A DNA stretch of 64,000 nucleotides from Planctomycetota bacterium (lineage in GTDB: Bacteria > Planctomycetota > Phycisphaerae > Phycisphaerales > UBA1924): the NCBI GenBank assembly GCA_039821685.1, contig JBCBNT010000003.1, positions 2,603-66,602 of the forward strand, given 5' to 3'. Position numbers and translations under genes: made by a program. Shown here piece by piece: positions 3,018-34,325 of the stretch; the stretch's first letter is position 1, and each line of letters begins with the position of its first letter. The notes under the pieces are model-generated. The model did no database searches. It saw only the letters and a program-made list of their open reading frames with translations, and was not told the origin of the DNA.

Positions 3018-4214
3018 CTAGTTGAAACGGAAGGCGGTGATGTTCTGCCGACCATTTCGGGTGAGGTACGGCTCGATGGGCTTACCGTCGCCGAAGTACT
3101 CGTCGAGAATCTCGACCGCGGCAGGGTTTCTGGAGACATCGTCGTTGTTTGACTGCCCGGCCCCGATCGCGATGTGACGGCTTCGGATGTAGGTCTCCGC
3201 CAATTCCTCATTGGCTCGCTTGAACGCGACGTGCCCATCGGCGAAGCTCACGTTGATGCCCGAGGCACCGTGGTTGCCGGTAAGCTTGTCGGGCCAGTTG
3301 TTCACCAGCGGCGAGTTCCCCTCGTTGAAGCCGTACGCCTCGTACACAACCCGCGATTGGTCCTCGTCAGAGTCGAGCGTGAGAAGCACCTGGCTCGGGA
3401 AGGTCACGTTGTTGACCGACTTGACATAGTCATCAAGGGCTCCGAGCTGCCCCGGAGAAAACACGGGCTCACCGGGCCGGGGATCGTCGTTGCCAGTCCC
3501 GAAGTAGCCGAACCAGCCATCGTCCGTCGGGCTGGAGTAGCCACGGTCACGGTTGTAGTCGCGGCTCACCCTCGACGCCGTCAGCCCGCCAACGTTCGAC
3601 GCGGTGTACCGCAGCCGGTCGAAACCATCGGGCCATCGCACGAGGTCGCCGAACGGACCCCCCTGGACGCCGAACCACGAGAACACCTCGTAGCTGTGCC
3701 CACGGAACCGCTGATTGCTCTGTAGATCGCCGTCTCCGGTGAGGGCGTCGCTGATGCTGGCCTCGACCGCGTTCCGGGTCAGGTCGAGCGGTACGGGCCT
3801 GCCGTGCAGATTGCGCTCCACCCCTTCAACCGGGATGATATTGCCCTGCCCGTCGCTGACACGGCCGTCCGGCAGTATGACCACGGTCGGATCGACGTCG
3901 TGGCGGGTGCCGGCGCACACGGCGGCTTCGGGGGTTTCCAGCTCGTTGACGAGGTAGCCGAGGTTGTCGGAACCGCCGCTGATGGTCGGCACAAACGCTC
4001 CGGCTTTGTTGCTGCCGTTCGCGTACACGTTCGCAGCGAGCGCGATCATCCGTTGGCCTGCAGCGCACGCGACGCGTTGCGACGTCTCGCGGGCTTTGCC
4101 AAGGGCGGGAAGAAGGATTCCGATCAGCAGCGCGATGATCGCGATGACCACGAGCAACTCAATGAGAGTAAACGCTCGGGTCGATCGGTTCGACGTTCTG
4201 TGATGGGTCAGCAT
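3018..4214 (-). CDS. Prepilin-type N-terminal cleavage/methylation domain protein (DUF1559-like pseudopilin paralogue)
   Basis: The N-terminus after the internal Met (cat 4212-4214) is [43 protein letters not shown]. The C-terminal ..NVSFADGHV motif is typical of this family. Confidence 0.85.
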   Translation of the reverse strand: MLTHHRTSNRSTRAFTLIELLVVIAIIALLIGILLPALGKARETSQRVACAAGQRMIALAANVYANGSNKAGAFVPTISGGSDNLGYLVNELETPEAAVCAGTRHDVDPTVVILPDGRVSDGQGNIIPVEGVERNLHGRPVPLDLTRNAVEASISDALTGDGDLQSNQRFRGHSYEVFSWFGVQGGPFGDLVRWPDGFDRLRYTASNVGGLTASRVSRDYNRDRGYSSPTDDGWFGYFGTGNDDPRPGEPVFSPGQLGALDDYVKSVNNVTFPSQVLLTLDSDEDQSRVVYEAYGFNEGNSPLVNNWPDKLTGNHGASGINVSFADGHVAFKRANEELAETYIRSRHIAIGAGQSNNDDVSRNPAAVEILDEYFGDGKPIEPYLTRNGRQNITAFRFN

Positions 4215-4323
4215 GCAAGGCTCCTGTGTTACGCGGGCGGGACCGTCCACGAATACGAACAAACCATGCTAAATCGAAGCGGCCTGTGTACAACTGCGAC
4301 GCTGTCAATGCTGTGTGAAGCAG

Positions 4324-4333
4324 TGTCTAGACA
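4324..4333. promoter_or_regulatory. Candidate HutC/GntR operator (perfect palindrome TGTCTAGACA)
   Basis: This 10-bp perfect palindrome contains GTCTAGAC, which fits the GntR/HutC consensus GT-N-TA-N-AC. It lies in the 296-bp divergent intergenic region between the pseudopilin gene and the GntR gene. Confidence 0.5.
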
Positions 4334-4475
4334 TTTGATTGTTAAGGAAACACGAGCGCATCGTGAAGCCTTGAACCCATGCCTCGACTTCTGGCCGCTG
4401 CACCGCAAGATGCTTCATTCGCAGGAGTACTTTGCATGCTCTGCTGATCCGTTGATGAGCGCCCGGCCCGCGAGT

Positions 4476-4484
4476 TGTCTAGAC
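4476..4484. promoter_or_regulatory. Second candidate HutC/GntR operator half-palindrome (TGTCTAGAC)
   Basis: The same GTCTAGAC core is repeated about 150 bp downstream of the first site. It lies about 27 nt upstream of the in-frame ATG (4511) of the GntR gene, which is consistent with autoregulation. Confidence 0.45.
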
Positions 4485-4510
4485 GCGACAGTCGACATGG
4501 GGATGCACAG

Positions 4511-10038: not shown

Positions 10039-10981
10039 CCGCGTCGAGCGCGAGCAGCTCGAAGGCGATGTGGGCCGCGAGCAGGGCCGTGTTGCCCGCG
10101 ACATCACGATCGGGCAGCACCTCGACCACGTCCGCGCCGATCAGGTTGAGCCCGCGGAGCCGCCGGATCAATCCGAGGGCATCGGCCGACGTCATACCGC
10201 CCACGCTCGGCGTTCCCGTCCCCGGCGCATAGGCCGGATCGATGCAGTCGATATCAAAGCTCACGTAGCACGGCGCGCCGGCGAGATCGCTCGCGAACTC
10301 CGTGAGCCTCGCCGGCCCTCGCTCGGCGAGCTCGGGCTGGGTGATCACCTCGATGCCCTGTGCCTGGGCGTACTCCAGATCATCACCCGAGTTGAGCGGC
10401 CCCTTGATGCCAACCGAGAGCATCCGCGCCGGGTCGAGCACGCCGTCTTCGATAAGCCGCCGGAAGGGCGTGGCATGGTTCCACCGCTCGCCCCACACCG
10501 AGTCGAGCGTGTCCATGTGGCTATCGAAATGCACGCACGCCAGCCCTGAAGCCGGAGAACCCGCCCGCTGCCACGCCGCGGTCATGCCCGCGTAGACGAT
10601 CGAGTGGTCGCCCCCCAGCACGAGCAGGCGGTCGGCATCGAGGCCCGCCGCGTGATCGATCACGCCATCGAGCGTCTTCTTGACGCTGTAAGGAAGCACC
10701 GGCGCATCGCCGGCATCGGCGAGCGAGAGCACACCGGGAACGTCAATCCCGTGCTCGATCGAGTAGTGCTTCAGATACTGCGACTGCTCGCGGATCGCAC
10801 GGGGCCCAAACCGGGCACCGGGCCGGTAGGTCACGCCACCGTCGAACGGCACCCCGAGGATCGCCCAGTCGGGGCGGCCATCGGCGTCGCTCAGCGTTGG
10901 ATAGCGGCCGAAGGTCGACAGCCCCCCGAACCGCGGCTGCACGCGCGCATCGGGCAGTCGCGTCCGGCGATCCGGGCTCAC
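10013..10981 (-). CDS. Arginase/agmatinase-family ureohydrolase (agmatinase or guanidino-acid hydrolase-like)
   Basis: Motifs: GVPFDGGVTYRPGARFGPRAIRE, LVLGGDHSI, VHFDSHMDT and SFDIDCIDPAYAPGTGTP. These are the Mn-binding signatures. The GTG start overlaps the astD stop (GTGA at 10978-10981). Confidence 0.88.
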   Translation of the reverse strand: MSPDRRTRLPDARVQPRFGGLSTFGRYPTLSDADGRPDWAILGVPFDGGVTYRPGARFGPRAIREQSQYLKHYSIEHGIDVPGVLSLADAGDAPVLPYSVKKTLDGVIDHAAGLDADRLLVLGGDHSIVYAGMTAAWQRAGSPASGLACVHFDSHMDTLDSVWGERWNHATPFRRLIEDGVLDPARMLSVGIKGPLNSGDDLEYAQAQGIEVITQPELAERGPARLTEFASDLAGAPCYVSFDIDCIDPAYAPGTGTPSVGGMTSADALGLIRRLRGLNLIGADVVEVLPDRDVAGNTALLAAHIAFELLALDAVRRDAERG

Positions 10982-19326: not shown

Positions 19327-19463
19327 GATCGGGCTCCTGCTGGCGTGTGTCGGTTGAAGGCGATCCGTCGCGGATTGCCCGCAAATATAGGCCGATCGGC
19401 CGGCTGACCGATCACCCCGCTATCCTGAGGTTTGCACGCACCGAACCCACCACGGAGGGTGGC

Positions 19464-21434
19464 ATGGCCAGAAAGACGTCTTCACGCACCCGCGCCACGG
19501 CCGAGACCATGGCCGTCAAGCAGCGCGACATCTCCGTCAGCGAATTCTTCGCCAAGAACCGCCACCTGCTCGGTTTCGACAACCCCCGCAAGGCGCTGCT
19601 GACAACGATCAAGGAAGCCGTCGACAACGCGCTCGATGCGTGCGAAGAGGCCGGCATACTGCCCGACATCGAAGTCAGGATCGAGGAGATCACGCCGCCG
19701 CCCTCGCCGCAGAAGGCCGGGCGGTACCGCGTGACGGTCACGGACAATGGGCCGGGTATCGTCCGCCGGCAGGTCGAGAACATCTTCGGCAAGCTGCTCT
19801 ACGGGTCGAAGTTCCATCGGCTGAAAATGTCACGCGGCCAGCAGGGCATCGGCATCTCTGCGGCCGGCATGTACGGCCTGATGACCACCGGCAAGCCCAT
19901 GGTGATCCACACCCGGCCCAAGAAGAACAAGCCGGCGCACCACATCGAGCTGGCCATGGACACGACCAAGAACGTGCCCGAGGTGACGATCGACGTCGAG
20001 ACCGACGACTTCCCCGAGACCAGCAGCGGCACCGGCACGCGCGTCTCGCTCGTACTCGAAGCCAGGTATGCCCGCGGCAAGACCTCCGTCGAGGCGTATC
20101 TCGAGCAGACGGCGATCGCGAACCCGCACACGCAGATCACATTCATCCCGCCGGATAAGGCAGACGAGGACCCCAAACTCGAAGGCGACACCGGAACGAG
20201 CCCCTTGCGCGAGCAAGGGGACCCAGCCGACTCAGGCATTGTCCGAACCGAAGAACACGCCGACCGCATTGTCTATCCGCGCACCATTGGCGAGCTCCCC
20301 CCCGAAACCGAAGAGATCAAACCCCACCCCTACGGCGTCGAGCTCGGCAACTTCCTCCGCATGCTCAAGGCCACCGACGAGAAGCAGCTTGGCGGCTTCT
20401 TCAAGCGCGAGTTCTGCCGGGTCACGCCCGCGGTCGTGTCGGACATCACCAAGGCCGCGAGCGTGAAAGGCAAGACGTTCAGCGGCCAGAGCTGGATCAA
20501 AAACATCGACCACGCCGCAGCCGAGAAGATCTACGCCGCCCTGCAGGACGCCAGGCTCCGCAGCCCCCCCACCGACTGCCTCGCCCCCATCGGCGTCCGC
20601 CAGATGCTCGCGGGCATGCTCAAGGGCGTGCAGGCCGAGTTTTACACCGCGAGCACGCGGAGCCCGGCGGTCTATCGCGGCAACCCGTTCCAGATCGAGG
20701 CGGCGATCGCCTACGGCGGCGACCTGCCGGGCGATCAGCAGGCCCGCATCATCCGCTTCGCCAACCGCGTGCCGCTGCTCTATCAGCAGTCGGCGTGCTG
20801 CGCGTTCAAGAGCGTGGTCGAGACCGGCTGGAAGAACTACGGCCTCTCTCAGCCCCGCGGCGGTGCGCCCGTCGGCCCGCTCGTCGTCATGATCCACATG
20901 GCTAGCGTCTGGGTGCCCTTTACGAGCGAGAGCAAGGAGGCAATCGCCGACTACGACGAGATCCGCAAGGAGATGACGCTCGCGCTCAAGGAGTGCGGCC
21001 GAAAGCTCGGGGCGTACATCCGCCGCCGCCAACGCATGAAGCGCGAGGGAGAACGCCGGGACGTCTTCGAGCGCTACATCGGCGAGATCGCCAAGAGCTG
21101 CACCGCGCTCACGGGCGTCGACACGGCCGAGCTGTATGACAACCTCATGAAGCAGGCCAAACGCCGCACCGAGATCGCCGACGCCAAGCTCGACGAGGAA
21201 GGCAAGTTCATCAAGGACGACGACGGCAGGCTCGCCAAGGACGACGACGTGATCATCGTTCGCGATGGCCAGATCGCGAATCCGAAGGACGAGCCGGCTT
21301 CGGAAGCGGAGGCGAAGCCCGCGAAGCGGTCGACGCCGGCCTCGGGCAAGAAGACATCGAAGAAGAAAGTTGTCAAGAAGGTCAAGAAGAAGCGGTCGCC
21401 GGCGAAGGCCGGGCTGTTTGAGGGGGCGCAGTAA
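19464..21434 (+). CDS. top6B: DNA topoisomerase VI subunit B (type IIB, GHKL ATPase)
   Basis: Motifs: ISVSEFFAKNRHLLGFDNPRKALLTTIKEAVDNALDACEE (N-box), VTDNGPGI (G1) and SRGQQGIGISAAGMY (G2). A GGAGG sits 5 nt upstream of the ATG at 19464. The C-terminus is Lys-rich (KKTSKKKVVKKVKKKRSPAK). Confidence 0.92.
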   Translation: MARKTSSRTRATAETMAVKQRDISVSEFFAKNRHLLGFDNPRKALLTTIKEAVDNALDACEEAGILPDIEVRIEEITPPPSPQKAGRYRVTVTDNGPGIVRRQVENIFGKLLYGSKFHRLKMSRGQQGIGISAAGMYGLMTTGKPMVIHTRPKKNKPAHHIELAMDTTKNVPEVTIDVETDDFPETSSGTGTRVSLVLEARYARGKTSVEAYLEQTAIANPHTQITFIPPDKADEDPKLEGDTGTSPLREQGDPADSGIVRTEEHADRIVYPRTIGELPPETEEIKPHPYGVELGNFLRMLKATDEKQLGGFFKREFCRVTPAVVSDITKAASVKGKTFSGQSWIKNIDHAAAEKIYAALQDARLRSPPTDCLAPIGVRQMLAGMLKGVQAEFYTASTRSPAVYRGNPFQIEAAIAYGGDLPGDQQARIIRFANRVPLLYQQSACCAFKSVVETGWKNYGLSQPRGGAPVGPLVVMIHMASVWVPFTSESKEAIADYDEIRKEMTLALKECGRKLGAYIRRRQRMKREGERRDVFERYIGEIAKSCTALTGVDTAELYDNLMKQAKRRTEIADAKLDEEGKFIKDDDGRLAKDDDVIIVRDGQIANPKDEPASEAEAKPAKRSTPASGKKTSKKKVVKKVKKKRSPAKAGLFEGAQ

Positions 21435-22607
21435 ATGGCAAAGACGCGCACGACAAAGAAGACCCCCGGCCGCAAAAAAATCACCGCAAAGCAGCCCAAG
21501 TCCAAGTCCGTCGCCGAGCGCGACGAGCGGACAGCGACCCGCCTGACCACCCTCGCCGACGGCATCGTCAAATCCGCGATGTCCGGCCGCGAGCCCAAGG
21601 TCGAGGTCCCCACGCGGTCTGCGGGCAACACCAAGTGGAACAAGTCCCGCGGTATTCTGCAGATGGGGGCCGGCACGCAGGAACGCCAGCTCTTTAACCT
21701 GGGCCAGGCCCGCAAGTTCATGCAGACCCTGCTCCACGGCGAGGGCATCAAGGACCTCATCGCCCAGGGCAAGACCACCAGCCTCCGCGGCATGTTCTAC
21801 CAGGGACTGCACACCATCCAGGGCACCAAGGAGAAGACCTTCAACGAGCAGAGCGAGTCCGACAGCATCCTCGAAGATCTCGAGGTCACGATCGGGGCGC
21901 TCCGCGAAGAGCTGCACGTCTTCGCCAAGAAGCGCGGCACGCTTGTGGGCAACATCACCGTCATCGACTCGGGCGACACCATCGACTGCCGACGCATGGG
22001 CTCGGGCGGCTACGCGATCCCCAGCATCTGCGAGCCGGACGTGATCCAGTTCGAGAACGTCGAGGCCGACTTCGTCCTGCACGTCGAGAAGGACACCGTC
22101 TGGCAGCGGTTCAACGAGGACAAGTTCTGGAAGCAGCACAACTGCATCCTCACCGAGGGCTCGGGCCAGCCGACCCGCGGCGTGCGACGCATGCTCCACC
22201 GCCTCAACAAGGAGCACGGCCTGCCCATCATCTGCCTGCTCGACTGCGACCCCTGGGGGCACTACATCTACAGCGTCATCAAGCAGGGCTCGATCTCGCT
22301 CGCCTTCGAGTCCGAGCGGCTCGCCATCCCCGAGGCCAAGTTCATGGGCATCCGCTCGAGCGACTACCAGCGCTGCGACCTGTCCGACGACGTGAAGATC
22401 ACGCTCAACGACCGCGACATCACGCGGGCGAAGCAGATCGCCGAGTACCCCTGGTTCGCGGACAACAAGCCGTGGCAGAAAGAGATCAAGGGGATGCTGA
22501 ACAACGGCTTCAAGATGGAGGTCGAAGGCCTGATCACCAAGGACATCAGCTATGTGACGGAAACGTACGTCCCCGAGCGGCTGGCGGCGGAGGATTGGTT
22601 GGGATAA
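21435..22607 (+). CDS. top6A: DNA topoisomerase VI subunit A (Spo11-like)
   Basis: The ATG immediately follows the top6B TAA. Motifs: SLRGMFYQ (catalytic Tyr region), FVLHVEKDTVWQRF (Toprim Glu) and CLLDCDPWGHYI (DxD). The N-terminus is Lys-rich. Confidence 0.92.
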   Translation: MAKTRTTKKTPGRKKITAKQPKSKSVAERDERTATRLTTLADGIVKSAMSGREPKVEVPTRSAGNTKWNKSRGILQMGAGTQERQLFNLGQARKFMQTLLHGEGIKDLIAQGKTTSLRGMFYQGLHTIQGTKEKTFNEQSESDSILEDLEVTIGALREELHVFAKKRGTLVGNITVIDSGDTIDCRRMGSGGYAIPSICEPDVIQFENVEADFVLHVEKDTVWQRFNEDKFWKQHNCILTEGSGQPTRGVRRMLHRLNKEHGLPIICLLDCDPWGHYIYSVIKQGSISLAFESERLAIPEAKFMGIRSSDYQRCDLSDDVKITLNDRDITRAKQIAEYPWFADNKPWQKEIKGMLNNGFKMEVEGLITKDISYVTETYVPERLAAEDWLG

Positions 22608-22633
22608 AAGCGATCGTCACCGACTCGTAATCG

Positions 22634-24814
22634 TCAACGAGCAAGTGACTTTGACATCGATCGCCCCAATTGGCAGAGAACGTTATAAGGACTAATCGCG
22701 GCCCATCTGGCAAAGTCGGCGAGCAAAATCGTGCCGTGGTCGCTTGCCTTACCTAATATTGTTACTTCCATCCCCGCCACTACCTCGTCTAGCTTAGACG
22801 ACTCCGCGTCACCTTGCGCATCAAGTCGGAGCATGCAGTAATTCATACGAATCGTCGACACATACGGGACCATGACACCATTCACGACCGCACGTGATTC
22901 TGGATTGGACACTACGGATGCCGGCAGCCCATCTCCGTACCCAACATTGACCACCGCATACCGGCCGGGGGGGACAGACGGCTCAATAATCGGACCAACC
23001 GCCACGTATCCGACTGGTGTTTCTTCGCCAATCTCGACAACACGAAGGATCGTCCCGACCACGACAACGGGAAGCTCGGTCCCAGGCTTCCCACCGAATA
23101 ATGCGCCTCCGCTGCGAACGATTTCACGGTAAAGCCCCGCGCTGGCGAGCGAAACCCCCGACAGAGCGGCGGCGGAATTGCGGGCATGCACCACAAGATC
23201 GTCACGCTCGTTTTCCTCTGCCACATGTTCTTGGAGGTTGATCGCCCGCCGAACAAACCTGATCGCTTCGCAGAATTTCTCGTCTTGCATTCGAGAAAAG
23301 TCTGCGTCGCCCCCGTCGCGAAGTTGATTCGCGAAACCCGCAACCCGGACCTCTGGCCCGCAGCGAGCGATCGCTTCACAGAGATCCGTTAGAGGCGGGC
23401 AGGGAGCACCGTCAGATTCGGGCGCCTCCACCCCAATGAAACGCATACCAGTGTCAATCTTGAGATGAACGCGGCATGATCGGCCAAGCCCCTTAGCGCT
23501 CGTCGCAAGCTGCTGGATCTGAGTCGCGGACCAAACAAACGGTTCAAGCCCGAGCCGGATAACTTCAGACATTTCGTCATCACGAGCTCCTTCGACAAGA
23601 AGGATCCTGATATCCTCAGGGCCTCCGGTATTCGCTGCGGGCCCTGCTATCTGCATGTGGACGCGCTTGACCAGCTCGCCCTCGTCCATTGTACTCACAC
23701 CGAACCAGCGTACGCCTGCCCCATAAAGCGGCTGAAAGACGTTCTCAATCCCAAGTCCATATGCATCGGATTTGAGAATTGCTAGCATAGAGTTAATGCC
23801 ACAGTTTCCGCGCCCAGCGATCGCATGCGCATTTGCGACCAAGCGGTGCGGCTTGATCATCATGCCCTTTGCACCCACAAGGCCAGAACTGATTAATGGA
23901 CGGCTGAGCGGCTTTCTGAGCAAGGGATATTTGTGCGGATTCGCAATGATTTCTTCAAAAAACTTTTCGTAGGCAGAGGGGTGCTTGTCATCAAAGTGTT
24001 CGAAATACAAGACTTTGTTATCTTCGTCGTATGTAAACACCAATTTGTCATCACAGATCACAACGTCTAAATCAGCATTCCGCACCGAAGTGGGCAGGTC
24101 GATTTGCTTTGAGAGCTTCTCTAGCTCATGGACAGTTATCCACGCTGTTTGCATATCCACGCCGACGGCGTGTCCATATGCGCAGAGCGCTCCTTCGTCG
24201 TTCTGCGAATCGGTAATCTGCGTCTGGCCCGATGCGACCAGCACGCGGAGCTTGACGTCAAGTTTCTTGTCTCGGAAGTTTAGCAAAAACGGAAGATCTT
24301 CCCTGAACCAATCGAAGCCGCCCCTTCGGTGAACTGTCTTGTACGAGTGCGTACAATTCTGTAGCGCATTTGCTAGCAGTTGAAGATAGGTTTCTTTCGA
24401 TACATTACGTATCATGCGAGTTCCTCGCTCAGCCCGAAAGTAGAGCGTGCCCAGCACGCCTGTGAAGGGCGACTCATTGCGGAACTCAGACATTACATCA
24501 GAAGAGTAATAAGCTCCGTCGAGCTTTGCCTTAAGGTCTTCAAGTGTCTTTGTTAAGCCTGCTGCTTGTCGCATGCCTTTGATTGCCCGCACAGTGGCCT
24601 CGAATCCAACGTGCACCAAATAGTTAAGCGCAGTGGCTATGCCGAATGTGACTAGATCCTTCGTCGCCGGAATCGCTCCCTCTGCAAACTCGGTCACGAG
24701 TATGATAATTGCCAAGACAACCTGTCCCAACAAAAAAGTAGGCCGTCCAACGGGAGTCAAGGCGGGCTTTATCTCCTCTCGCCAATTCTTTGAGTCGCTC
24801 GCCGACAATGCCAT
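22634..24814 (-). CDS. Membrane-anchored fusion protein: unknown ~320-aa N-terminal module plus a C-terminal alanine-racemase-fold PLP domain
   Basis: It has two predicted TM helices (about residues 25-72). Racemase motifs: AILK(348)SDAYGLG, VHLKIDTGMRFIG, ETPVGY(603)VAVG, VNVGYGDGLP and STIRMNY. The composition is clearly lower in GC than the flanks. A GAGGG sits upstream of the ATG. Confidence 0.8.
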   Translation of the reverse strand: MALSASDSKNWREEIKPALTPVGRPTFLLGQVVLAIIILVTEFAEGAIPATKDLVTFGIATALNYLVHVGFEATVRAIKGMRQAAGLTKTLEDLKAKLDGAYYSSDVMSEFRNESPFTGVLGTLYFRAERGTRMIRNVSKETYLQLLANALQNCTHSYKTVHRRGGFDWFREDLPFLLNFRDKKLDVKLRVLVASGQTQITDSQNDEGALCAYGHAVGVDMQTAWITVHELEKLSKQIDLPTSVRNADLDVVICDDKLVFTYDEDNKVLYFEHFDDKHPSAYEKFFEEIIANPHKYPLLRKPLSRPLISSGLVGAKGMMIKPHRLVANAHAIAGRGNCGINSMLAILKSDAYGLGIENVFQPLYGAGVRWFGVSTMDEGELVKRVHMQIAGPAANTGGPEDIRILLVEGARDDEMSEVIRLGLEPFVWSATQIQQLATSAKGLGRSCRVHLKIDTGMRFIGVEAPESDGAPCPPLTDLCEAIARCGPEVRVAGFANQLRDGGDADFSRMQDEKFCEAIRFVRRAINLQEHVAEENERDDLVVHARNSAAALSGVSLASAGLYREIVRSGGALFGGKPGTELPVVVVGTILRVVEIGEETPVGYVAVGPIIEPSVPPGRYAVVNVGYGDGLPASVVSNPESRAVVNGVMVPYVSTIRMNYCMLRLDAQGDAESSKLDEVVAGMEVTILGKASDHGTILLADFARWAAISPYNVLCQLGRSMSKSLAR

Positions 24815-24938
24815 CTGTCACCCTCACGTGTTGCCTCAAGTTTAAGAATAACACCAAGCAAATGCGGAATATGTGGGCGTAATAATTCGGTGGAGCTGAA
24901 ACGGCCTCCTCTGCGCAGACGCAGCACGGGAGGAGCAT

Positions 24939-27128
24939 TCACTCGTCGATCATTCCTAATTGCCGCATCATAAAGATGCGGCGGTCGGCGATGTCGCGGA
25001 CGCGCTGGTCGAGACTCTTGCCGCCGCCGTGGCCGGCCTTGCGATCCACCCATAGCAGCACCGGCTTCTCGCTCGGGCTGCTCGCCGTCGCGTTTTGCAG
25101 GGCAGCCGCCATTTTGCGGGCGTGGTACGCGTGTACACGGGTGTCGTTCTCGCCGGCGGTCAGGAACATCGCGGGGTACTCGACGCCCTTCTCGACGTTC
25201 TGGTAGGGCGAATACGCCAGGAGCGTCTTGAACTGCTCCGGGTCTTCGGATGAGCCGTACTCGGGCACCCAGTAGCGGGCCATGAGGAAGTCCTGGTAGT
25301 TGAGCATGTCGAGCAGGGGCACGTGGCACTCGACGGCGGCGAACAGGTCGGGCCGCTGCGTGATCATCGCGCCTGTGAGCAGGCCGCCGTTGGAGCCGCC
25401 GGCGACGCCCAGCTTGTCCGCGTTGGTGTAGCCGTTGTCGATCAGCCACTCGGCCGCGGCGATGCAGTCGTCGAAGACGTTCTGCTTGTTCTCCATCATG
25501 CCGGCCTTGTGCCACTCGGCGCCGTACTCGCCGCCGCCGCGGAGGTTGGCGACGGCGTACACGCCGCCGTTCTCGTACCACGGGAACATCGTCGCGCTGA
25601 AGCCAGGCCGCATGCTGATGTTGAACCCGCCGTAGCCGTAGAGGATCGTCGGGTTGTTGCCGTCGAGCTCGAGGCCCTTCTTGTGCACGATGAACATGGA
25701 GACCTCGGTGCCGTCCTTTGACGGGTACCACACCTGCTTGACCTCGACAATGCTCGGATCGACAGGGATGTCGGGGCGTGCCCAGAGCTCGCGGGTTTCG
25801 CCCATGTCCGCGAGGTCAACACGGTAGATGCTCGTCGGCTCGTTGTAGCTCGTGTAGGTCAGGAAGCCGGTGGTCCGATCGTCGGTTGTGGACAGGCCGG
25901 CCGAGCCGATGCCCGGCAGCTGCAGATCACCGAGCGACGCGCCCTTGTTGCTGTACAGGGCGAGCTTGGTGCTGGCGTTCTCGAGGTAGCTCACGCCGAA
26001 CATGCCGCGGGCGAAGCTGACGGACTGGATGACCAGGTCGTCCCGCTCGGGCACGAGGTCGGTCCAGCTGTCGACGTGCGGGTTGTGCAGGTCGACCTCG
26101 ACGACGCGGCTGTTGGGCGCGCCGATCTGCGTGGTCATCCGGAGCACGTCGCCGTCGAAATCGCTGCTGCCGATGCGGCCCGATTCGCCGATCGCCATGG
26201 GAACCAGCTCGAGGTCGCCCGTGCGGCGCCACTCGTCGAGATTGGCGATCCAGACATCGACGCCGCTCGTGCCCGTGTAGTAGCCCACGAGCAGCCAGCG
26301 GCCGTCTTCCGATGCCGAGCCGAAGGGTCCCCACGTCGTCTTCAGGGCTTCAAGCTTCGCTTCGTCGTAGCCGGCGACGGTTCCTATGGCATCATCGTAG
26401 AAGAACCCGATATCGCGCTGGCTGAAGAGCGTGATGTCTTCGCGCGGGTGCGTGCCGAGGCGGTGGTAGCGGTAGACGCCCGAGTACGCGTCTTCTATAT
26501 CTTCGAGCGCGTTGTAGAAGAAGCCCTCGCCATCGGGCGACCATTCGTCGAAGCCGACCTTGCCGGGCACGACGTCCGCGAGCCACTCGCCGGTATCAAC
26601 ATCAAGCACGTAGGCGGTCGTGTTCTCGTCGCCCGCGTAATAGGTGCCGAAGGCGACAAGCGATCCGTCGTGATTCGGCCTGTAGAAAGAGATCGTCGTC
26701 AGCCCGCTGGGATCGATCTCTTCGGGATCGAGCAGCACCTGCTCGTCGCCGTCAAGGCCTTCGCGCATGTAGATGACGGCCTGCGGCTGGCTGCCCTCGC
26801 GGCGGCTGTAGAAGTACCGGTCGCCGTAGGGGCGAGGGGCCGACACGCTCGGCACCTCCATCAGCTCGCGCAGCCTCGCCTCGAGCTCGGCGCGCCCATC
26901 GATCGTGTCGAGGAAGTCCCGCGTGTACTGATTCTGCGCGTCGGACCATACGGCGATCTCTTCGGTCACGCCGTTCTCAGGCCCTTCGAGCCACTGGTAC
27001 TCGTCGACGAGCGTCGTGCCGTGGTAGTCGATGCTGACCGGGCGAGACTCGGTCGCCGGCGGGTCGCCGGGCTGGGCACCCGAGTAACCGGAAAGGGCAA
27101 CGGCGAGAACGCAAGCGGTTCGAAGCAT
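24939..27128 (-). CDS. Prolyl oligopeptidase (S9A serine peptidase), secreted
   Basis: Evidence includes the signal peptide MLRTACVLAVALSGYSGAQ, a beta-propeller region, the catalytic motif GVAGGSNGGLL, and a C-terminal ..GHGGGKS.. segment typical of S9A. Confidence 0.9.
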   Translation of the reverse strand: MLRTACVLAVALSGYSGAQPGDPPATESRPVSIDYHGTTLVDEYQWLEGPENGVTEEIAVWSDAQNQYTRDFLDTIDGRAELEARLRELMEVPSVSAPRPYGDRYFYSRREGSQPQAVIYMREGLDGDEQVLLDPEEIDPSGLTTISFYRPNHDGSLVAFGTYYAGDENTTAYVLDVDTGEWLADVVPGKVGFDEWSPDGEGFFYNALEDIEDAYSGVYRYHRLGTHPREDITLFSQRDIGFFYDDAIGTVAGYDEAKLEALKTTWGPFGSASEDGRWLLVGYYTGTSGVDVWIANLDEWRRTGDLELVPMAIGESGRIGSSDFDGDVLRMTTQIGAPNSRVVEVDLHNPHVDSWTDLVPERDDLVIQSVSFARGMFGVSYLENASTKLALYSNKGASLGDLQLPGIGSAGLSTTDDRTTGFLTYTSYNEPTSIYRVDLADMGETRELWARPDIPVDPSIVEVKQVWYPSKDGTEVSMFIVHKKGLELDGNNPTILYGYGGFNISMRPGFSATMFPWYENGGVYAVANLRGGGEYGAEWHKAGMMENKQNVFDDCIAAAEWLIDNGYTNADKLGVAGGSNGGLLTGAMITQRPDLFAAVECHVPLLDMLNYQDFLMARYWVPEYGSSEDPEQFKTLLAYSPYQNVEKGVEYPAMFLTAGENDTRVHAYHARKMAAALQNATASSPSEKPVLLWVDRKAGHGGGKSLDQRVRDIADRRIFMMRQLGMIDE

Positions 27129-27179
27129 GGCAGATACCTCCACCCGCATCGTACCGAGCCCGCGGCTCCGGGTGCCGCC

Positions 27180-32385: not shown

Positions 32386-33525
32386 TTACGGGAGTCGGAA
32401 GCCGCTCTGACCGGTGTCGGAAGTCCCCTCGGGAAGCTCACGGGCGTAATCGCGTGCCTCTTCCGTCAGATTGCTCAAAGCCGAGCCGACCACAATGCTT
32501 CCGGAAGGGGCCCATCGGGACATGTCAGTGAAGACCTCGGTCTTCGTGAGGTTTTCTGTGTGGCCGTCGAAGAACACGGCGTTGATCGACTCGTTCTTGT
32601 GTCGGAAGGAGAGAAGCTGGTTAGTACCGGAACTGCCTCCTTGCACGGGGTTCTCTCCGTACGCGGTGTTTCGCGTGAACTGCGGTGTGCCCGACGTGAA
32701 CATTCCGAACGTCACTCCGCCGTCCTCCTCCGGGGTCACGTCGATGTCCAAGCCCTCAGACTGCGAGAAGTAACGCGTGCCGTTTGCCACCATAATTTTG
32801 TCCGCGGGCGAAATGCCGACCTGTTCGATCCGGCTGCGGAACCGTTGCGGCGTCTTGACCTGCGTTGATTTGGTGCCGTTCCAGTAGTCGGGGGCAAAGC
32901 CGAGGCGTGCCGCATTTGGGTCGCCGGTGTTGTTTGATGGCTGGCCGGGTACAAACCCGCCACCACCACCTCCTGAATTGGTCGAACCCCAGTAGGCGAA
33001 TGCGCCCGGCATGAGGTAGCTGACCTGCTTGTAGCCGCGGTTCTCGCCCAGGTACTCGCGGAAATCGTCCTCGTCTGTCGCGGCTGAGCCGGACCAGATC
33101 GTGTCGTTGAAGACCCGAGCGGCCGGATCGGCGAAGTCATTGAAGATATCGCCGGCGCGGCGTGCCCGGTTGGCTGAGAAGCCGAGTTCCTCGCCGATCG
33201 TCGGCGAGATGAAGTCCATGGTCTGGATCGGTGTCTTGGCCGTCGTGTTGCCGCTGTAGGTGTCGCCAGTTTCTTCAAACTCGCGCTGGCCGGCTCCGCC
33301 TGAAGTGTTGATCGCTGCGAAGAAATCTTTGTTCTCCGTCGCGTACGCGTACTGAGCGGTGCCCATCGAACGCTGCTGAGTCTGGTCGACCAGAGACCAT
33401 GCAGTCTGCCGAGCCGTGCCGAGAGCGGGAAGCAAGATGCCGATGAGCAACGCGATAATTGCGATCACAACGAGGAGTTCGATCAGCGTGAAGCCCCGCT
33501 GAGTCTGGTGCCGGAACGAGGTCAT
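32386..33525 (-). CDS. Prepilin-type N-terminal cleavage/methylation domain protein (DUF1559-like paralogue)
   Basis: The sequence [39 protein letters not shown] follows the internal Met (cat 33523-33525). The C-terminus has INAVFFDGHTE. Confidence 0.85.
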   Translation of the reverse strand: MTSFRHQTQRGFTLIELLVVIAIIALLIGILLPALGTARQTAWSLVDQTQQRSMGTAQYAYATENKDFFAAINTSGGAGQREFEETGDTYSGNTTAKTPIQTMDFISPTIGEELGFSANRARRAGDIFNDFADPAARVFNDTIWSGSAATDEDDFREYLGENRGYKQVSYLMPGAFAYWGSTNSGGGGGGFVPGQPSNNTGDPNAARLGFAPDYWNGTKSTQVKTPQRFRSRIEQVGISPADKIMVANGTRYFSQSEGLDIDVTPEEDGGVTFGMFTSGTPQFTRNTAYGENPVQGGSSGTNQLLSFRHKNESINAVFFDGHTENLTKTEVFTDMSRWAPSGSIVVGSALSNLTEEARDYARELPEGTSDTGQSGFRLP

Positions 33526-33562
33526 TGCAGGTCCTTCCATTTCTACGTCAAGCGTAAAACGA

Positions 33563-33934
33563 TCAGAGTGACTTCGCGCTGCCCGTGACAGCGACGGCCC
33601 CCGTTGAGCGATCAACGACGGGGGTTTCCCCGTCTTCCGTCCGGTTGCGGAACGCGTTTATGTACCGCGGCGCGATGGTCCATTCGCCGGACTCTTCGTC
33701 TTGGATAACCGGGTAGAGCGTATTTTCGCCCGTTTCCGGGTTTGTCATCGGGATGAGGACGGTCTTGCCCGCGGTATCAGCCGAGAACAGTTCTCCGGAA
33801 ACGACATCGGCGACAAACACGCTCGATTTGGTCTCGACCGGACCCATCGAAGAAATGGCGAACGCGACCCCGACACCGCCGGCAAGCAGGCCGATGACGA
33901 CGAGTGCGATCTGCCAGGGCTTTGCTCCGCTCAT
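33563..33934 (-). CDS. Small hypothetical N-terminally anchored protein (123 aa)
   Basis: The sequence MSGAKPWQIALVVIGLLAGGVGVAFAISS follows the internal Met (cat 33932-33934). It lies 37 nt upstream of the pseudopilin-like gene on the same strand. Confidence 0.5.
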   Translation of the reverse strand: MSGAKPWQIALVVIGLLAGGVGVAFAISSMGPVETKSSVFVADVVSGELFSADTAGKTVLIPMTNPETGENTLYPVIQDEESGEWTIAPRYINAFRNRTEDGETPVVDRSTGAVAVTGSAKSL

Positions 33935-34325
33935 CTCGTTCGCGTCCTTTGCGTCGGTCAGTGAGCGCTCATCCGCTCGTGCGTTCCGGGATTCCTCTGC
34001 GAAAGAGACTCGGACAGAGGTTGTCGGGAGGCCGTGATCGTAAACCAATCCGAGCTGGGCGGGAGAACACCCGACCTGCATGCGAAGGCAAATCGTAGCG
34101 AACCCCCCCCACGAGGCGAGCACAGGCCGATCAGCGGCTCCCCACTTTCGCCATTCTCACCACGCCTTTACAAACAGTTTGGTTTCTGAATGGACCTGCA
34201 TGGGCAAGCACGGACCTGCCCGATCGCTATCGGGTGTGATCGGGAGCCAGGGGTCACTCGGGCAACCGGCCGGCGTTGCTTCGACGAGGGCTGTCGGTTG
34301 CCCCATGCGTCGGGCCGAGCTCGTA

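Follow-up and report, generated by a model that had tools for sequence, protein, structure and literature searches.

A putatively membrane-anchored fusion of a phospholipase D-like module with an alanine racemase domain, encoded at a gene-swap site in a planctomycete

What does a gene of foreign composition contribute to a planctomycete when it lies between topoisomerase VI and a peptidase gene, and where did it come from? This question is raised by a 64-kb stretch of DNA (the window; 64000 nucleotides [nt] of contig JBCBNT010000003.1) from a Planctomycetota bacterium of the order Phycisphaerales. A preliminary description of the window had pointed to a low-GC single-gene island beside top6A, which encodes subunit A of topoisomerase VI, and had proposed that its product is a membrane-anchored fusion of an unknown module with an alanine-racemase-fold domain. 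Our analysis bears out the central claim. The fusion protein is real, rare (11 representatives among 1.84 billion) and unstudied, and it carries a confident new domain fold. The order of its parts is a transmembrane (TM) hairpin, a long helical stalk, a module of ∼185 amino acids (aa), a flexible linker and a complete alanine racemase. We favour, with roughly even confidence, a role as an accessory, membrane-tethered and cytoplasm-facing D-amino-acid racemase, the N-terminal module of which would set where or when the enzyme is active.

Origin and insertion site of the fusion gene

The fusion gene stands out from its surroundings by three measures that agree with one another. Its GC content is 0.538, compared with 0.666 ± 0.018 in all other 2181-nt windows (z ∼ −7); its GC content at third codon positions (GC3) is 0.57, compared with 0.87–0.93 in top6A, top6B, ndk and the genes for the S9 peptidase and an ABC ATPase; and it forms the top peak of tetranucleotide distance. 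The outlier status was computed within the 64-kb window, not genome-wide, and at that scale the gene is the strongest outlier, as had been proposed from short samples. The low-GC stretch extends from ∼22600 to ∼24940, with GC back to at least 0.60 from ∼24875 onward, and the list of open reading frames (ORFs) holds no other long ORF in it except out-of-frame overlaps of the fusion gene. Weaker GC dips were seen at 4001–4500 (0.58) and 32501–34000 (0.60–0.61), against ∼0.66.

Eighty related top6A loci of the Phycisphaerales type were compared with the window. In ∼30 of them ndk, top6B and top6A are followed by the genes for the S9 peptidase and the ABC ATPase on the opposite strand, and the gap between top6A and the peptidase gene varies from 29 nt (locus L035) through a few hundred nt to >6.8 kb (L017). 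Not one of the 80 encodes the fusion protein. In comparison with its three closest genomes (L060, 96% identity; L003, 90%; L009, 87%) blastn homology stops at window position 22603, at the top6A stop, and the DNA downstream differs in each of them. Genes that bear the N-terminal module, whether fused or standalone, lie below the GC content of the rest of their contig in 11 of 11 loci (L001, L002, L083–L088, L090, L091 and L095), by 0.017 to 0.15, and therefore the whole module family behaves as horizontally moving accessory genes. Because of its composition, the synteny break at the top6A stop, its absence from 80 related loci and the low GC of the 11 family loci, the earlier proposal that the fusion gene was acquired horizontally, as a single gene, is well supported.

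The term island has to be qualified. There is a single foreign gene, but it occupies a recurrent gene-swap site rather than a classical island. Elsewhere the slot holds unrelated cargo, often of low GC, namely FG-GAP repeat proteins, a leucine-rich repeat (LRR) protein, a DUF1877 protein, a protein with a weak HEPN match, and hydrolases. In two of the closest genomes a second, displaced top6A 3′ end is present: in L003 at 10591–10741 (151 nt, 98.7% identity to the window, equivalent to 22453–22607) and in L060 at 1846–1930 (85 nt, 94% identity to the window). Between the intact end and the displaced copy lie 1–1.4 kb of cargo, which is low in GC in L003 and of approximately native GC, with a 316-aa ORF, in L060; in L003 the intact top6A 3′ end is slightly unlike its displaced copy. 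These duplications look like site-specific or recombination-driven insertion of cassettes into the top6A 3′ end; the L003 and L060 sequence read showed no obvious integrase-like ORF.

Unlike L003 and L060, the window contains no duplicated top6A 3′ end. The earlier statement that mobility markers are lacking holds for a tRNA target (the sole tRNA of the window is 16 kb distant) and for flanking direct repeats (only chance-level repeats were found at the fusion gene); integrases were not searched for. The insertion mechanism is not visible as a trace in the window. A 17-nt inverted repeat (88% complementary; 22708–22724 and 24797–24813), just within both ends of the fusion gene, is probably due to chance. 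Topoisomerase VI itself (top6B and top6A, 19347–22607) is conserved in the 80 loci fetched, with ndk usually upstream on the opposite strand, and in the window there is no gap between the top6B stop and the top6A start. The locus provides a record of precise gene swapping at the top6A 3′ end in Phycisphaerales. The slot was also considered as a defence island and rejected as such, with none of ten cargo proteins from other genomes matching PADLOC and with miscellaneous Pfam content.

The membrane anchor and the PLD-like module

The position of the gene (convergent with top6A, with 26 nt between the two stops, and starting 124 nt downstream of the stop of the peptidase gene on the same strand) and its 726-aa ORF are as described previously; a Shine-Dalgarno-like sequence precedes the ORF. 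The public record differs: MEO1583099.1, annotated as 'alanine racemase', is 687 aa long and starts at V40, which removes the first TM helix (window 24697–24814). The 726-aa start appears better supported than the public one, because there is a good Shine-Dalgarno sequence at the ATG at 24814 and homologues keep both hydrophobic helices. The N-terminal extension of the longer form is common to homologues, and gene calling on an independent Logan assembly yielded an identical product of 726 aa (P0081). A scan for sigma-70 promoters and terminators gave chance-level counts, with no convincing sigma-70 match in 24815–24938.

Two N-terminal TM helices had been proposed, and the two did not fare alike. 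TM1 is clear, with Kyte-Doolittle means of 1.5–2.2 over 19-residue stretches starting at residues 20–33, and its hydrophobic segment is conserved in three homologues (P0002–P0004). TM2 is present in the model and is clearly hydrophobic in homologues, but in the window protein no 19-residue stretch reaches 1.5, and a hand average over residues 54–72 is ∼1.3. The loop between the two helices has six residues, is acidic and contains no Lys or Arg, and six Lys or Arg residues directly follow TM2. These positive-inside charge counts favour a hairpin with both ends inside, which would put module and racemase on the cytoplasmic side. From TM2 a single model helix runs on as a stalk, a candidate coiled coil through which the protein may dimerise. 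At the other end of the module the linker to the racemase has a predicted local distance difference test (pLDDT) score <50 at residues 303–315, is poorly conserved and varies in length in the alignment.

Residues 1–320 gave no match in Pfam, NCBIfam or PADLOC, in agreement with the earlier failure to recognise a family there, and four module sequences had no match in Pfam at E up to 10, Regulator_TrmB included. A profile search of solved structures with the full-length rows of alignment A3 returned only racemases and no sequence-level solved relative of the module. The family is indeed undescribed; its fold, though, appears recognisable, and to that extent the module is no longer an unknown one. 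The AlphaFold2 model of the module is confident (pLDDT 89.6; predicted template modelling score [pTM] 0.86). The top Foldseek matches in the PDB are the sugar-binding domain of TrmB (3qph_A, E 2.3e-4; 2f5t_X, E 3.4e-4; TM-score 0.37–0.38), followed by TrmBL2, the DUF1669 pseudo-phospholipase D (pseudo-PLD) domain of FAM83A, bacterial and human PLDs, vaccinia F13 and phosphatidylserine synthase. The matches to the PLDs, F13 and phosphatidylserine synthase (E 4e-3 to 7e-2, TM-score 0.31–0.41) are weaker than those to the non-catalytic PLD-fold domains and amount to a modest, if consistent, resemblance; in a viral library PLD-domain and F13-like proteins were found. With TM-scores of 0.35–0.41 for the matches, this is a fold assignment rather than family membership.

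No H-x-K-x4-D (HKD) motif was found in any fetched protein of the family. The strand and turn that carry K-x4-D in PLD carry a near-invariant D250-x4-D255 in the module, with no conserved His at that place. Y143 and R190 are invariant (62 of 62 sequences), and Y213, G218, W225, D250 and D255 are nearly so. The model thus presents the module as a previously undescribed PLD-fold domain, which from its residues is almost certainly not a phosphodiesterase. A role in ligand binding or interaction is most plausible by analogy, since its best structural neighbours (TrmB and FAM83) are of that kind.

A profile search with the module among the 1.84 billion cluster representatives retrieved 77 proteins at E ≤1e-3, one of which (P0066) is repetitive and was regarded as spurious. 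Eleven of the 77 are fused to alanine racemase. Most are 130–375 aa long, too short to include a racemase; three of them (P0015, P0017 and P0019) were confirmed as complete standalone module genes in their contigs, and some others, P0010 and P0013 among them, seem to be fusion fragments. In three proteins (P0018, P0033 and P0043) anchor and module are joined to a different, conserved C-terminal domain of ∼200 aa with the motifs LQFSG and NVSWYR, for which P0033 gave a weak DUF5919 match (E 0.0067), and in one protein the module is C-terminal. The possibility that this alternative domain is a second copy of the module was rejected (module-only hhalign E = 0.13). Residue 117 is His in 38 of the 62 module sequences of alignment A3, for the most part in sequences that lack a racemase, and the racemase fusions almost always have Phe (Ser-Pro-Phe-Thr-Gly; F117 at least 90% conserved in alignment A6). 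This difference may mark a functional split in the module family.

The racemase domain, its comparators and its relatives

Both Pfam domains of alanine racemase are present, and most blocks of the barrel are modelled at pLDDT 83–97, with dips to 70–81 and 58 in a few blocks. Residues were compared with alanine racemase (Alr) of G. stearothermophilus, the numbering of which was validated at 14 published residue positions. The catalytic dyad is kept: as proposed earlier, K348 and Y603 align with Lys39, which binds pyridoxal 5′-phosphate (PLP), and Tyr265. K348 is invariant in 11 of 11 fusions, and every family member that reaches the region has Tyr at the position of Y603. Also kept are R567 (Arg219, the partner of the pyridine N), K452 (Lys129), Y352 (Tyr43), S547 (Ser204), Y626 (Tyr284), M657 (Met312) and Y710 (Tyr354). 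Three positions are changed, with F459 for Arg136, Q497 for His166 and N658 for Asp313. In Alr, Arg136 and His166 contact the PLP O3′ or the substrate carboxylate and tune Tyr265. The window protein carries an Arg one residue before F459, and the same arrangement (GMR[FV]) is found in P0002, which is 39% identical; retention of the shifted Arg at that distance suggests selection rather than decay. P0003 has Cys at the Arg136 position, and the other members that reach it keep Arg. Gln at the His166 position recurs in P0002 and P0011, with His in the other members that reach it. Identity of the domain to ordinary Alr is 23–33%, and among solved structures the sequence matches to BsrV (4beq, 4beu and 7agz) and 4dyj are marginally ahead of those to Alr (E 9e-12 vs. 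4e-9). The racemase domain is complete and divergent and apparently functional.

Three known systems provide comparisons. VanT, of VanC/E/G/L/N-type vancomycin resistance, is likewise a protein of ∼700 aa in which a membrane part of ∼320 residues precedes a cytoplasmic PLP domain of the alanine racemase family, and it is likewise an accessory, horizontally mobile racemase on top of housekeeping alr; one relative of the window protein even lies near a gene of the D-Ala-D-Ala ligase family. However, the N-terminus of VanT (∼1–322) is a multi-pass domain of the acyltransferase superfamily that is thought to import L-Ser (PMC4542195), and that of the window protein consists of a two-TM hairpin, a stalk and a soluble PLD-fold module without a Pfam match. 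Tyr at Alr position 354 favours alanine over serine, and an Asn in its place confers serine activity on VanT (PMC4542195); the window protein has the Tyr. Its scores against the VanT models are far below their cut-offs (vanT-CELN, 32.7 bits vs. 900; vanT-G-Cterm, 68.6 vs. 460), and there is no van-type ligase or VanXY neighbour in the window. Because it lacks every defining VanT feature examined, the protein is an analogue of VanT and not a member, which agrees with the difference noted in the preliminary description.

Canonical Alr/DadX (TIGR00492; PF01168 and PF00842) shares with the window protein both domains, the catalytic residues and most active-site residues, but not the 316-residue N-terminal extension with its membrane anchor, nor the foreign composition. 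Bsr enzymes, exemplified by BsrV of Vibrio cholerae and Alr/Bsr of P. putida, are the top solved-structure matches, and they are accessory enzymes of the Alr family that supply D-amino acids for envelope remodelling. Bsr enzymes are soluble and periplasmic and carry a signal peptide, whereas the enzyme domain of the window protein is tied to a hairpin anchor and a PLD-like module and, by prediction, lies on the cytoplasmic side; the similarity is weak. The module itself compares with TrmB, TrmBL2 and the DUF1669 domain of FAM83 in having a PLD-like α/β fold without HKD (Foldseek E 2e-4 to 2e-3), and the TrmB domain binds a small-molecule effector. Unlike TrmB, it shows no detectable sequence similarity to that family, has no winged-helix/helix-turn-helix DNA-binding domain, is predicted to be tethered to the membrane and has an invariant set of its own (Y143, R190, D250 and D255).

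In the contexts read, the fusion is solitary among unrelated neighbours. One relative, in another metagenome-assembled genome of Phycisphaerales, has a fucosidase gene on one side and a SecA-like gene on the other; P0002 lies among insertion sequence (IS) elements, one of which truncates the fusion gene; and P0025 directly follows a type I restriction HsdR gene. Two contexts involve D-amino-acid genes. In several independent assemblies (four loci read) a bona fide ddl is located 1.3–1.4 kb upstream of the P0008/P0082 relative, and the ligase near P0082 passes ordinary Ddl models, not Van-type ones. P0014 belongs to an operon-like array, in which it immediately follows a bona fide alr (234 bits, cut-off 168) and a gene for a class IV aminotransferase with D-amino-acid transaminase as its best match. 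With a canonical alr beside it, this fusion is therefore an additional racemase and not the housekeeping one. At least four independent assemblies share a gap of ∼1.3 kb without any ORF >78 aa between ddl and the fusion (1331–2648 in L091, also in L092–L094); a decayed gene, a regulatory RNA or a long leader could account for it. A search of viral contigs turned up no relatives. Metagenome contigs gave no match to the module alignment, and with the fusion alignment they gave 80 ordinary racemases and no fusion. A literature search on membrane-bound alanine racemase fusions, or on a link to the TrmB/PLD fold, found nothing specific. The features of the locus are collected in Table 1.

Table 1. 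Coordinates of the fusion gene, its encoded parts and its flanks in the 64-kb window.
Feature	Position	Strand	Basis or remark
Fusion gene, 726 aa, intact	22634..24814	-	ORF list; ATG 24814-24812, stop 22634-22636 included
Shine-Dalgarno-like GAGGG	24821..24825	-	6 nt 5′ of the ATG; direct sequence reading
TM helix 1, residues 24-44	24683..24745	-	Kyte-Doolittle, model helix 24-44, homologue conservation
TM helix 2 (predicted), residues ∼51-73, moderately hydrophobic	24596..24664	-	Start of continuous model helix 51-112
Helical stalk, residues 74-112, candidate dimerising coiled coil	24479..24595	-	Single model helix 51-112
PLD-like-fold module without HKD, residues 113-295	23930..24478	-	AlphaFold2 model and Foldseek; compact α/β
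Inter-domain linker, residues 296-316	23867..23929	-	Low model confidence; probably flexible
Ala_racemase_N, PLP-binding TIM barrel, residues 317-577	23084..23866	-	PF01168, residues 323-577, 98 bits (cut-off 24.1)
Ala_racemase_C, β domain, residues 588-721	22652..23053	-	PF00842, 59.6 bits (cut-off 25)
K348 codon, PLP-binding catalytic lysine (Lys39)	23771..23773	-	Alignment to G. stearothermophilus Alr; invariant in fusions
R458-F459 codons, Phe at Arg136 position, Arg one residue earlier	23438..23443	-	Alignment to Alr
Q497 codon, at His166 position	23324..23326	-	Alignment to Alr
Y603 codon, second catalytic base (Tyr265′)	23006..23008	-	Tyr in every family member reaching the region
Spacer, top6A stop to fusion-gene stop, 26 nt, convergent	22608..22633	.	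Left edge of the foreign segment; blastn homology ends at 22603
Spacer, S9 peptidase stop to fusion-gene start, 124 nt, low-GC	24815..24938	.	Right edge of the foreign segment; presumed promoter region
top6A (topoisomerase VI subunit A), native left flank	21435..22607	+	Pfam TOP6A-Spo11_Toprim, TP6A_N, Topo_VI_alpha; GC3 0.93
S9 prolyl oligopeptidase, native right flank	24939..27149	-	Pfam Peptidase_S9_N and Peptidase_S9; GC3 0.885

Possible roles of the fusion protein

An accessory racemase held at the membrane, the reading that we favour, would work as follows. The two-helix hairpin would anchor the protein in the inner membrane with the enzyme towards the cytoplasm, and the long helix that leaves TM2 would probably pair with that of a second copy. 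Alr enzymes are obligate dimers with shared active sites, and the stalk could plausibly pre-form a dimer of the Alr type. The HKD-less module would probably bind a small ligand or a phosphate-bearing head group, and the flexible linker would join it to the PLP-dependent racemase. There, Lys348 on one face and Tyr603 of the partner subunit on the other would interconvert the L- and D-forms of a small amino acid by a two-base mechanism, with alanine as the most likely substrate. D-amino acid would be supplied at the membrane beyond that made by the housekeeping alanine racemase, and the N-terminal module would localise or gate the enzyme. Control of the racemase by a signal, as raised in the preliminary description, is at most compatible with the TrmB-like fold.

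Several observations weigh against this reading. The fold matches of the module are modest (TM-score 0.35–0.41, E 2e-4 to 1e-2), and no ligand can be named from them; the full-length model (pTM 0.54) does not fix the relative positions of the domains. The racemase domain scores 94.3 bits against the alr equivalog TIGR00492, below its cut-off of 168, and with the altered Arg136 and His166 positions its activity or substrate may differ. D-amino-acid genes accompany the family in only 2 of ∼8 contexts, the neighbours of the fusion gene itself (topoisomerase VI and peptidase) are uninformative on function, and the evidence for a racemase additional to alr comes from loci of relatives and not from the source genome.

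Three other explanations concern the racemase domain. That it catalyses some other PLP chemistry, or takes an unusual substrate such as a lipid- or precursor-attached amino acid held at the membrane by the module or a broad spectrum of non-canonical D-amino acids, is rather unlikely in our estimate, but with the Arg136 and His166 changes it has to be taken seriously. The changes at Arg136 (with the shifted Arg kept in P0002), His166 and Asp313 speak for it, as do the BsrV structures and 4dyj as best solved-structure matches and a module that is held at the membrane and belongs by fold to a superfamily that typically handles phosphodiesters or lipid head groups. On the other hand, Arg136 and His166 persist in most other family members, the window protein retains the Tyr at position 354 that limits the size of the side chain, Bsr is ahead of Alr by only a slight margin, and no lipid-modifying partner gene recurs next to the family. 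The same substitutions, the score far under the equivalog cut-off and low model confidence right after Y603 (residues 604–610) would fit a pseudo-enzyme that serves as an amino-acid or PLP receptor in a membrane sensor or scaffold. We consider this quite improbable. The dyad and the equivalents of Arg219, Lys129, Ser204 and Tyr43 are conserved in a family only 19–40% identical to the window protein, which would be unexpected without catalysis and therefore argues against a pseudo-enzyme, and there is no output domain. Least credible is a housekeeping alanine racemase with an odd N-terminal extension and a local quirk of composition, despite the public annotation and the presence of both Pfam racemase domains. 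It was rejected on composition (GC3 0.57 vs. ∼0.9 in all neighbours), on distribution (absence at the locus from 80 related genomes, the 96%-identical L060 included) and on score; moreover, a canonical alr adjoins the fusion in L086.

The genomic setting and the modular build bear on two further explanations. In a conflict or anti-phage defence system, a role raised earlier, the module would sense a ligand of infection, and the hairpin or the racemase would be the effector, by membrane damage or by disturbance of the D/L-alanine pool. An accessory low-GC gene as single cargo of a hypervariable slot would suit such a system, as would the modular build, with a two-TM anchor, a putative sensor and exchangeable C-terminal domains, and the positions of P0025 after HsdR and of P0002 among IS elements. 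We nevertheless hold it improbable, and the claim found no support beyond the one relative beside a type I restriction gene: neither the protein (0 families, E up to 1) nor the ten slot cargo genes matched PADLOC-DB 2.0, the cargo of the slot is miscellaneous (FG-GAP, LRR, hydrolases), viral contigs yielded no relatives, and two contexts point to ordinary D-alanine metabolism. To our knowledge, no defence system with an alanine racemase has been described. A broader proposal, to which we likewise give a low probability, is that hairpin, stalk and HKD-less PLD fold make up a new, widespread family of membrane-tethered domains that bind ligands or head groups and recruit or gate different enzymes. 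In the racemase fusions such a domain would offer the enzyme a substrate that is membrane-bound or phosphate-linked, such as a cell-wall precursor or an aminoacylated lipid, or would switch the racemase on in response to an envelope signal. If true, D-amino-acid chemistry would here be localised and regulated in a way that has no description to date and differs in mechanism from VanT.

The practical stakes of the finding are modest, and there is no sign of a new class of mechanism or of a link to a major open question. As far as we know, the alanine racemase family has a single well-characterised member that is membrane-bound, VanT; the window protein would be a second, independently evolved class with a wholly different N-terminal part. 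A further outcome is a domain family, with 77 cluster representatives, for which Pfam and NCBIfam have no entry. If the module binds a ligand or a lipid, the fusion would offer a simple model for localised or gated production of D-amino acids at the bacterial membrane. The peptidoglycan of Planctomycetes has been recognised only recently, and in that case the fusion would have a bearing on cell-wall remodelling in these bacteria.

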